Position numbers: made by a program. Shown here in pieces: positions 15,001-18,000 of a stretch of DNA of 64,000 bases (within the stretch, counting starts at the first letter, position 1; every line of letters starts with the position of its first letter). Source of the DNA: Escherichia coli (lineage in GTDB: Bacteria > Pseudomonadota > Gammaproteobacteria > Enterobacterales > Enterobacteriaceae); assembly GCF_051903065.1 (NCBI RefSeq), contig NZ_CP178438.1; one strand, written 5' to 3'.

Positions 15001-18000
15001 ATTTGCCCGGGAATACCATCCAGTCGTTTTGGGTTGCTAATGATGTCCTGCATCCGCTTAATCTGGTCGGGCGTAGACATATAATCCCACAGGGTGAGCA
15101 GAACCTTTTTTGCGGCTACACTATTTCCCTGGTCTGATACTAATGCCATATAGCCCCATAAACTATCCCTCAGCCAGACAGCATCATAGTGGGTTTCTGC
15201 CGCTGTTTTGTCATCTTCGAAAGTAGAAGCAAGAATAAACGTTCCCCAGGGTTTCTCCGTCAACGTTAACTTTCGTGTGTTTTCTGTTAATGTTAGCAAT
15301 CCTTGAATTTCGTCTTTGGTATAGTGGCTCTTTATTTCATTTTGTAATTTGGCTGAGTGAATCAGAAGACGATAATTAGGATACTTATCTGGATTTAACG
15401 ATAAATAACTTTTATCTGTTGCTGCCCCCGTGGAATTAAGAATGTTAAATACAGATTCACTCGTCACTTCTGCCCCTGTCGCCTGGCATGTGCCGCACGA
15501 AAATATACCAGCGAGCAGAAGAGTTAATGCAGATTTCCCTTTCATAAAATATTCCATCAATCGTTTGTTAAAAGCGTAGATAACCACTTATTTAACAACT
15601 TGAAAATAAGGTATTTTACCTGGGTTGTTATAAAAGGATTGCATTGCGTAAACGCTTTTTATTTACAAAAAAATGGGGAAGTGTTACGGCGATTGCGAAA
15701 AGTCTGAAGCGATTGAATTAAGATAATATAGAAAATCAGATACAACAAAAATGGCAGGTTGATGAGGTGAAGATAAATTGGAGCGGGCGAAGGGAATCGA
15801 ACCCTCGTATAGAGCTTGGGAAGCTCTCGTTCTACCATTGAACTACGCCCGCTTCGAGATGCGTAAGGCATTATAAACCTTACGCTCTCCTTAGCAAGTG
15901 CCGCGCTGCTGACTGCTGATTAATTCGCCATCAGCATTTTGGCTTGCTGCCCTGCGGCGGCAAGTAACGTAGCGGATCAATTGCCGTTGCACGGTAACGA
16001 ATCTGGAAATGCAGGCGAACAGATGCCGCATCCGTGCTCCCCATGGTGGCGATTTTTTACCCAGCCTTCACGCTTTGCCCATTATTTACCAGCATCGTGT
16101 CATTATGGGCGTAAGCCGTAATGTAATCTTCACTGTGTTTAATCATGATGAGATTACCGTAGCCACGCAGCTGGTTGCCCACATACACCACCTTTCCTGC
16201 ACCCGCGGCGTAAATAGGTGTACCCCGTGGAGCTGAGATATCAATCCCTTTATTGCCGCCATCTGCTGTCGAATACGGCATGATAACTTTCCCTGTCGTT
16301 GGCCATAACCAACAACGTTGCCCTACTGGCGGCCAGGAAGATTTCGGTACCGCTGATGACGGTGTAACCGATGCGGTTTTGGTCGTTGATTTGGCGGTTG
16401 ATTTACGTGTACTACTGCTACTTTTCGCCCCACCCAGTTTTAGTTTCTGACCAACTTCAATGGTGTAAGGGGGGGAAATGCCGTTCAGTCGCGCCAGCTC
16501 TTTTACGCTGGTTCCCGTGGTGCGCGAAATACGATATACCGTATCCCCCCGTTTCACGGTGTAAACGGAGCCGGAATACGTTCCTGTATCGGATGATTTG
16601 CTACCCGAACAGCCCACCAAAAGCAGTCCAACCGATAACAACATCACGATACCCAGAGATTTTTTATTCAGGCGTCCCGCACTCAAAATCTTTCCTCGCT
16701 TAAAAAACAAGACGCCATATCATAGCAGCCAGCCTCTTGATACCCAATCTCTTGCTTCTGGAAAAACGCGGTAATAGAGAAAGAGGTTAATTTCATTTGG
16801 CAAAGGGAAGTATCATCAGCAAAATATTCACTGTAGAGGTATCGAATTTCCTGACTTTTTTACCCTATTTCCCATCCTGATGCGTAATAATCCCAATTTA
16901 TCACATTGATTTTATCGCCACTCATATTGATACGTATCACTGCCCCTATTCAGAGTCCTGTTTCGTATCATATCTGTGTTTTTTTAACGTCATCACACTT
17001 CCTTCCTCCCCTAACGCTTATCGTCGTTTCTGGCGTAAATCTTGCCTGCTTAGACTAAATCTTTGCCATAAGAACCAAATGTTCAAATCGAGGGGATTTC
17101 TATGGAAGCGCGGGAAGCAACCGCTACGGGTGAATCATGCATGCGCGTTGATGCCATTGCTAAGGTCACCGGGCGGGCACGATATACTGACGATTATGTT
17201 ATGGCGGGCATGTGTTATGCGAAATATGTACGTAGCCCTATCGCACATGGTTATGCCGTAAGTATTAATGATGAACAAGCCAGAAGTTTACCAGGCGTAC
17301 TGGCGATTTTTACCTGGGAAGATGTGCCTGATATCCCATTCGCTACAGCTGGGCATGCATGGACACTTGACGAAAACAAGCGCGATACCGCCGATCGCGC
17401 ACTGCTAACTCGCCATGTTCGTCATCATGGTGACGCCGTTGCCATCGTCGTGGCCCGCGATGAACTCACGGCAGAAAAAGCGGCGCAATTGGTCAGCATT
17501 GAGTGGCAAGAATTACCCGTTATCACCACGCCAGAAGCGGCGCTGGCAGAGGACGCTGCACCAATCCATAACGGCGGCAATTTACTGAAACAAAGCACGA
17601 TGTCGACGGGCAATGTCCAACAAACAATCGATGCCGCCGACTACCAGGTACAGGGGCACTATCAGACTCCCGTTATTCAACATTGTCACATGGAAAGCGT
17701 AACATCGCTGGCGTGGATGGAGGATGACTCGCGAATTACCATCGTTTCCAGCACCCAGATCCCGCACATTGTTCGCCGCGTGGTTGGTCAGGCGCTGGAT
17801 ATTCCCTGGTCATGCGTACGAGTCATCAAACCATTTGTCGGTGGCGGTTTTGGTAATAAACAGGATGTACTGGAAGAGCCAATGGCGGCATTCCTGACCA
17901 GCAAGCTTGGCGGCATTCCGGTGAAAGTTTCCCTTAGCCGTGAAGAGTGTTTCCTCGCAACCCGTACCCGCCACGCTTTTACTATTGACGGGCAAATGGG

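Follow-up and report, generated by a model that had tools for sequence, protein, structure and literature searches.

We propose that actS, as carried by the E. coli strain under study, is a recent loss-of-function pseudogene. The gene lies in a stretch of 64,000 nucleotides of contig NZ_CP178438.1 (assembly GCF_051903065.1), which is referred to below as the window. The lesion would have arisen once, spread clonally and been close to neutral, with an effect on the cell that is silent or conditional. We assign this reading a probability of about 0.82. A C-to-T change turned the codon of the invariant Gln210 into TAA, and translation from the normal start therefore ends after residue 209. In the resulting product, the lipoprotein signal and the LysM domain are kept along with the first six LytM strands out of nine, whereas the last three strands and His226 are missing. 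A LytM β-sandwich that misses a third of its core would presumably offer no groove for the amidase interaction helix. Judging from the topology of the fold, the ActS(1-209) fragment probably misfolds and is broken down, or else has no activity, and the ActS-dependent activation of AmiC (and of AmiA and AmiB) would be lost.

The actS locus and its premature stop

The ancestral actS frame occupies 15931..16686 on the minus strand, from a TTG start codon (16686..16684) to the ancestral TGA (15933..15931), and PGAP gives identical coordinates. Translation of these 756 nt, corresponding to 251 codons, encounters two stops, TAA at codon 210 and TGA at codon 252. The name actS is the current one for ygeR. 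The premature ochre stop (C628T, Q210*) is located at 16057..16059 on the minus strand in a TAA-A context, the plus-strand base being an A at position 16059. It leaves a translatable frame of 209 codons (16060..16686, minus strand) that encodes the signal peptide with its lipobox, the LysM domain, the linker and about the first two thirds of the LytM domain. The remaining, untranslated tail (15931..16056, minus strand) consists of 41 sense codons followed by the TGA and corresponds to residues 211-251 of ActS; its protein sequence is 100% identical to the K-12 tail, with no sign of further decay. An earlier inspection of the DNA (the sequence-only reading) had placed a TAA at 16057-16059, followed by 41 in-frame codons up to the TGA at 15931-15933, and all of these coordinates as well as the tail sequence are correct. 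Its claim of a single CAA-to-TAA change relative to K-12 is likewise borne out, since codon 210 is CAA both in K-12 MG1655 and in the closest intact allele, that of strain XH990. The glutamine is invariant across 24 orthologues, and inspection of the sequence revealed no Dcm site (CCWGG) at codon 210.

Comparison with related ygeR genes indicates that the stop is not native to this position. The orthologues are 240-256 amino acids long and are aligned with 100% query coverage up to the very C-terminus, hence a native stop at codon 210 can be dismissed. Compared with full-length orthologues, the locus has a stop within its frame and a recognisable coding sequence downstream of it. It is thus a pseudogene of the common nonsense type, and one that RefSeq has already flagged: PGAP assigns actS pseudogene status, citing an ‘internal stop’, in the genomes of E. 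coli 23CRST027 (NZ_AP045789.1), isolated from human faeces in Ecuador, and of strain ECNB21-M121. Over a 25-kb piece, the window matches 23CRST027 with 100% identity, and the sister isolate 23CRST031 matches this piece at an essentially equal level. Base 1 of the window corresponds to position 3413013 of the 23CRST027 record, and with this offset the feature coordinates agree. Within 49 kb of the same record, only two other pseudogenes are annotated, sctN and ygeH. Both belong to the decayed ETT2 island, and the assembly therefore shows no hint of poor quality. Our literature search retrieved no paper on the actS Q210* allele; its matches for nonsense or evolved alleles of ygeR were non-specific, and none concerned the gene; with regard to the lineage or sequence type of the carriers, it yielded strain names only, in unrelated tables.

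The gene is situated between xdhA and a tRNA-Gly(CCC) gene, with the same neighbors in K-12, XH990 and the window. The tRNA gene (15779..15852, minus strand; glyU by synteny) lies 78 bp downstream of actS and forms part of the context, outside the lesion. Between both genes, at 15897..15870, a sigma-70-like site is present that agrees with the consensus at 10 of 12 positions, a match to the consensus only. A polar effect of the actS stop on this tRNA is unlikely to matter, because the tRNA appears to have this good sigma-70-like site of its own. An Rfam scan of both strands from 15400 to 17200 produced nothing besides the tRNA-Gly.

Residues and strands removed by the truncation

Sequence, domain architecture and synteny all identify the gene as an orthologue of actS. 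When the stop is reverted, the protein scores 451.2 bits against NF040883, the NCBIfam equivalog model for ActS, over profile positions 3-242 (of 242). This exceeds the cut-off of 375 and shows that the gene descends from actS. As translated, the 209-aa product reaches only 349 bits over positions 3-200 of 242, below the 375-bit cut-off. K-12 ActS has the same locus and TTG start, the same lipobox and LysM domain and the same degenerate LytM domain, and the window allele differs from it by 8 of 756 nt. At the protein level these differences amount to Q210*, A24V, L50V and I92S, and residues 210-251 are missing from the product.

The N-terminal elements are all preserved. The translation starts with a signal peptide and lipobox (…LLLVGC, Cys26; 16609..16686, minus strand), of which G25 and C26 are invariant in the 24 orthologues, followed by a LysM peptidoglycan-binding domain at residues 42-84 (16435..16563, minus strand; Pfam PF01476, E = 6e-16) that is kept in the truncated product. 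The product thus has the lipobox and the LysM domain of an outer-membrane lipoprotein of this type, albeit with the invariant L50 replaced by valine. The Peptidase_M23/LytM domain at residues 145-238 (15973..16254, minus strand; Pfam PF01551, E = 1e-32), on the other hand, is interrupted after residue 209, with the loss of 29 of its 94 Pfam-matched residues.

The lost part is among the conserved parts of the protein. Of the 42 positions that are removed, 29 are invariant and four more are at least 90% conserved in the 24 orthologues, which originate from at least eight genera including Citrobacter, Salmonella, Enterobacter, E. fergusonii, Trabulsiella, Yokenella and Scandinavium. This conservation, together with the complete identity of the tail to that of K-12, argues that the stop is not a chance feature of the frame. 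Of 136 more distant homologues (35-90% identity) whose match reaches the end of the domain, 126 extend at most three residues beyond the match. The counterparts of A213, G216, L225, F227, R230 and P238 do not vary across 48 diverse LytM domains.

A model of the LytM domain only, built from these 48 diverse homologues, was obtained with a pLDDT of 94.2 and a pTM of 0.90 and comprises nine β-strands. The full-length AlphaFold model based on the 24 close orthologues was discarded (mean pLDDT of 41.5, below 50 in the LytM region). In the domain model, the strands at residues 211-215, 224-231 (with H226) and 234-236 are the last three of the nine and are all encoded after the stop, the first six being retained. 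The sequence-only reading had anticipated the loss of C-terminal LytM strands, and both the Pfam M23 match and the domain model agree with it: the last 42 residues are removed. Based on this model, the translated product would not possess the complete LytM fold of the dLytM activators, with three of nine strands gone. Foldseek aligns the ActS domain model to DipM (7QRL) with a TM score of 0.84 and to EnvC (4BH5, 8C0J) with a TM score of 0.81. In these EnvC and DipM LytM structures (4BH5, 8C0J, 7QRL), the C-terminal strands belong to the same β-sandwich that forms the amidase-binding groove, and in EnvC the amidase interaction helix docks into the LytM groove (PMC10268282). However, EnvC and DipM share only 31-35% identity with ActS, the likeness runs via a predicted model and the corresponding contact residues of ActS are putative. 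The lost part also includes H226 of the degenerate catalytic motifs, where HxxxD is replaced by N145-K-G-I-D149 and HxH by H226-F-Q228. Our own reading of these motifs is in agreement with the report that D149, H194 and H226 are the only M23-motif residues kept by ActS (PMC8360153).

Carriers, recurrence and order of events

The exact 61-mer centred on the TAA is present in three complete genomes from two continents (23CRST027, 23CRST031 and ECNB21-M121), in a census of about 5,400 complete genomes, 4,773 of which gave a comparable match, and which is blind to a TAA on the T642 background. ECNB21-M121 was obtained from meat in China and hosts an NDM-5 plasmid (PMC12918755). In an index that covers NCBI, ENA and Logan assemblies and holds about 15 billion predicted proteins, the exact 209-aa product occurs in 168 blocks with Leu50 and in 26 blocks with Val50, the form found in the window, or about 194 in total; blocks do not correspond exactly to samples and the ratios are approximate. 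All seven Leu50-allele carrier loci that were inspected (L004-L010) have TAA at codon 210 and an undecayed tail, with flanks that differ by 0-2 SNPs over 7 kb where an ungapped comparison is possible. In all four Val50-allele loci (L012-L015), the gene is identical to that of the window. Two downstream contexts exist among the carriers, in which actS is followed either directly by ETT2 or by integrase-bearing islands at the tRNA-Gly.

Q210* is real and inherited in a small clone, and a sequencing artefact is excluded for practical purposes. A sequencing or assembly error in the source genome might be suspected since the site abuts an A6 run and one Logan contig (L021) breaks exactly there. Yet the change is a substitution rather than an error in homopolymer length, the same base is found in assemblies that were produced independently, across laboratories, technologies and countries, and within which a second mutation is nested, and the surrounding 49 kb hold just the two pseudogenes of the ETT2 island mentioned above. 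We consequently give this explanation practically no weight.

A second explanation invokes readthrough or a suppressor tRNA, by which enough full-length ActS would be made to keep the gene functional as a ‘pseudo-pseudogene’. We regard this as highly improbable. The undecayed actS tail is what such a mechanism would predict, and pseudogenes have reportedly been found, in one paper, to yield protein at low levels. Against it, the UAA codon is read by both RF1 and RF2, and the intact state of the tail is explained by the recency of the stop, given flanks that have accumulated so few SNPs. The only tRNA in the scanned part of the window (15000-17000) is the ordinary tRNA-Gly(CCC), which offers no suppressor. 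Possible readthrough has been described at in-frame stops flanked by conserved sequence, but the stop of actS is TAA and not the leaky TGA (PMC7918605).

A second derived substitution accompanies the stop in the window. Codon 50 (16537..16539, minus strand), within the LysM domain, is GTA (Val) instead of the CTA (Leu) found in all relatives (C148G, L50V), and L50 is invariant in the 24 orthologues. The sequence-only reading had described a single-codon change, which holds for Q210* itself but overlooked L50V. The ECNB21-M121 allele differs from the intact XH990 allele (WP_001625866.1) solely by C628T, to which the window allele adds C148G. Among the roughly 15 billion proteins of the collection, no full-length V50 form exists, V50 with the stop being present in 26 blocks. 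Because V50 never occurs without the stop, L50V must be the later of the two and have arisen in a sub-clade. L50V is consistent with a relaxed constraint on the LysM domain, but it is a single event.

The nonsense change is not restricted to this clone. Exact look-ups show the 209-aa product also on the A24/I92 background (the K-12 haplotype) and on the A24 background, and at the DNA level the same C628T is found on at least five further haplotypes. The carriers of C628T on other haplotypes show 4-10 differences to the window, including one at position 642, only 14 bp away, and they are embedded in different genomic neighborhoods. Both the differing haplotypes and the differing neighborhoods indicate that C628T is recurrent and of independent origin. 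On the T642 background, Q210* (TAA) was found in none of 5,109 complete genomes.

Nevertheless, codon 210 was rejected as a mutational hotspot or otherwise special site. On the A24 background, 92,309 blocks contain the intact protein, 37 Q210*, 69 Q204* and 51 Q172*; Q204* and Q172* are thus at least as frequent as Q210*, and their stops were verified in DNA as TAA and TAG, respectively. A mock query for ‘Q228*’ returned only partial genes at contig ends, with a baseline of about 20 for such partials. Put simply, actS accumulates rare C-to-T nonsense alleles at several glutamine codons, and every one of them stays at a few per ten thousand. The other natural nonsense alleles (Q204*, Q172*, and Q210* on A24, A24/I92 and other backgrounds) resemble the window allele in that they also result from C-to-T changes at glutamine codons and cut the LytM domain; they are rare and scattered over lineages. 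They differ from it by their other haplotypes and by their absence from complete genomes, as checked for Q210* on the T642 background, the clade of the window allele being the largest one seen, with 194 blocks. These represent about 7% of the V24 haplotype blocks (194 with the stop versus 2,503 intact), compared to approximately 0.03-0.07% for the A24 nonsense alleles. The share of about 7% is explained by clonal expansion, although a selective advantage would be compatible with it as well. We envisage that the stop arose once in the lineage of the V24 actS haplotype and spread clonally, and that the later L50V marks the sub-clade of the window. Its persistence would most simply reflect near-neutral drift or hitch-hiking.

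Function, redundancy and biological weight

ActS is an outer-membrane lipoprotein without hydrolase activity that activates all three of AmiA, AmiB and AmiC, but favours AmiC in vivo. The part of it that activates amidases is the LytM domain: stimulation of the amidases and rescue of cell separation have been published for full-length and LytM-only constructs of the K-12 protein, while a LysM-only construct fails to restore cell separation (PMC8360153, PMC9238320). Since the activating part is precisely the domain that is disrupted, loss of function is the best reading of the allele. The sequence-only reading had listed ActS among four LytM factors implicated in amidase activation, which is right for ActS but not for MepM, an endopeptidase that is no amidase activator (PMC8360153).

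Redundancy would conceal this loss in most conditions. NlpD has the same architecture as ActS (lipoprotein, LysM, degenerate LytM) and is the second-best NCBIfam match of the gene; the LytM domains of both proteins are 65% identical (PMC8360153). NlpD differs by its longer linker and by its role as the main AmiC activator in unstressed cells, and it is intact here. A double loss of outer-membrane activators was considered and rejected: the nlpD start called by PGAP is merely 17 codons short, and the canonical ATG and signal peptide are present in the window's genome. Cells that lack ygeR alone show normal separation; the gene gains importance once nlpD and envC are both deleted, above all at pH 5.2 (bioRxiv 10.1101/2020.10.19.344754). 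ActS is also important under stress on LPS export (PMC8360153). With an intact NlpD and single actS deletions that show no separation defect, the lesion should go unnoticed in ordinary growth and have consequences only under envelope stress, at acidic pH or when NlpD or EnvC is compromised.

Selection for the stop itself is an unlikely alternative in our view. It would imply that less amidase-driven autolysis is beneficial under outer-membrane or cell-wall stress, for instance upon exposure of multidrug-resistant lineages to antibiotics. Deletion of actS indeed suppresses lysis in ldtF-deficient, LptC-depleted cells (PMC8360153), and overexpression of ActS causes lysis (PMC9238320). However, dpaA/ldtF is intact in the window's genome, by which the published lysis context does not apply and a compensatory loss tied to dpaA/ldtF was rejected. 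The distribution of the allele can be read in both directions. It makes up about 7% of the V24-haplotype blocks, occurs on two continents and includes one host of an NDM-5 plasmid (PMC12918755), and Q210* recurs on at least five other haplotypes. Yet, Q204* and Q172* are as frequent as Q210* on A24, each at no more than about 0.07%, which fits a mutation-drift balance, and the allele is found in just three of about 5,400 complete genomes.

The retention of the lipid anchor and the LysM domain means that a peptidoglycan-binding fragment could persist. A new function for ActS(1-209), as a stable binder of septal peptidoglycan or as a dominant-negative competitor of NlpD and ActS, nevertheless appears very unlikely. 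The stop spares the signal peptide, the lipobox and the LysM domain, and LysM mediates peptidoglycan binding and septal recruitment (PMC8360153, PMC9238320), but the LysM-only construct does not restore cell separation (PMC8360153) and a partial β-sandwich is a likely substrate for proteases. Similarly, the identical truncation point on several haplotypes would be in line with a functional fragment, were it not that other truncation points are equally common. L50V, at an invariant residue of the very domain on which such a function would depend, suggests relaxed constraint instead, even if it is a single event. A broader scenario joins both ideas: loss or truncation of ActS would be repeatedly selected in natural E. 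coli to dampen autolysis under envelope stress, with the Q210* clade as a successful example and a possible contribution of the lipid-anchored LysM fragment, e.g., as a septal competitor. We consider this scenario rather improbable.

Under the preferred reading, a near-neutral loss-of-function allele that spread with its clone, the biological weight of the lesion is small. ActS is a conditionally used and redundant activator of septal amidases, for which natural null alleles at low frequency are to be expected. Q210* with the nested L50V provides a convenient marker of the clade. In addition, the Q210* clade may be used as a natural knockout alongside near-isogenic, intact XH990-type genomes, and could as such inform on the role of ActS in fitness outside K-12 under acid, LPS-transport and β-lactam stress.

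A second substitution and the surroundings of actS

Besides the stop, the actS gene of the window carries a second derived substitution, L50V (codon at 16537-16539, minus strand), which alters an invariant residue of the LysM domain of the product. In the protein collection look-up, V50 is seen solely alongside the Q210* stop (26 index blocks, the counting units of the collection, which are not exactly samples), and a full-length ActS with V50 had no match in that collection.

Immediately downstream of actS lies a tRNA-Gly(CCC) gene (15779-15852), which is an integration site. 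Differing integrase-bearing islands are found there in close relatives (loci L003, L007, L008, L014, L023 and L026), including the intact strain XH990 and some Q210* carriers. The window has no island at this tRNA gene and continues directly into a glycoside hydrolase family 15 (GH15) gene of the YgeQ region (13935-15587, minus strand) and then into ETT2. The mechanical GH15 open reading frame has a GTG start and 550 aa, beginning 14 codons upstream of the PGAP start (536 aa); in the complete-genome Q210* carrier ECNB21-M121 this gene is interrupted by IS903B. ETT2, a type III secretion island, is in a decayed state (4062-7659): as PGAP annotates the source record, ygeH is truncated by an inserted IS903B, whose transposase gene lies at 5396-6364, and sctN (6382-7659) has an internal stop.

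The nlpD start site, and annotated lesions elsewhere in 23CRST027

Outside the window, the matching record NZ_AP045789.1 (E. coli 23CRST027) has an nlpD call that is 17 codons short (locus L016, 24457-25600), the PGAP product beginning LVSLWLAGCS…. The canonical ATG and a complete signal peptide (MSAGSPKFTVRRIAALS…) are present upstream of that start; an nlpD lesion is thus ruled out and the short call is a quirk of start-site annotation. Two more genes of this genome, hpaG (L037, 14190-15479) and the T6SS gene tssM (L038, 9954-13481), are 'internal stop' pseudogenes, and a frameshifted vgrG/tssI lies close by.

Recurrent loss of actS

The identical change, C628T (Q210*), was found on at least five further actS haplotypes in varied neighbourhoods (L017-L020 and L022-L026; actS at 3001-3756 of each locus), three of these loci (L017, L019, L020) having the exact K-12 actS haplotype and K-12-like surroundings. 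Among complete genomes, none carries the Q210* alleles of these haplotypes. Many carriers of a 209-aa 'product' are contigs below 2 kb. Some of these short-contig 'products', at the least, are partial genes cut by the contig end without a true stop. The Logan contig L021 ends at 3629, precisely the mutated position, and reads GGGAA there rather than GGGCAA or GGGTAA. Further natural nonsense alleles of actS are Q204* (TAA, 69 blocks) and Q172* (TAG, 51 blocks), represented by loci L027-L032 (actS at 1001-1756 of each locus). Inactivation of actS in nature is sporadic and recurrent.
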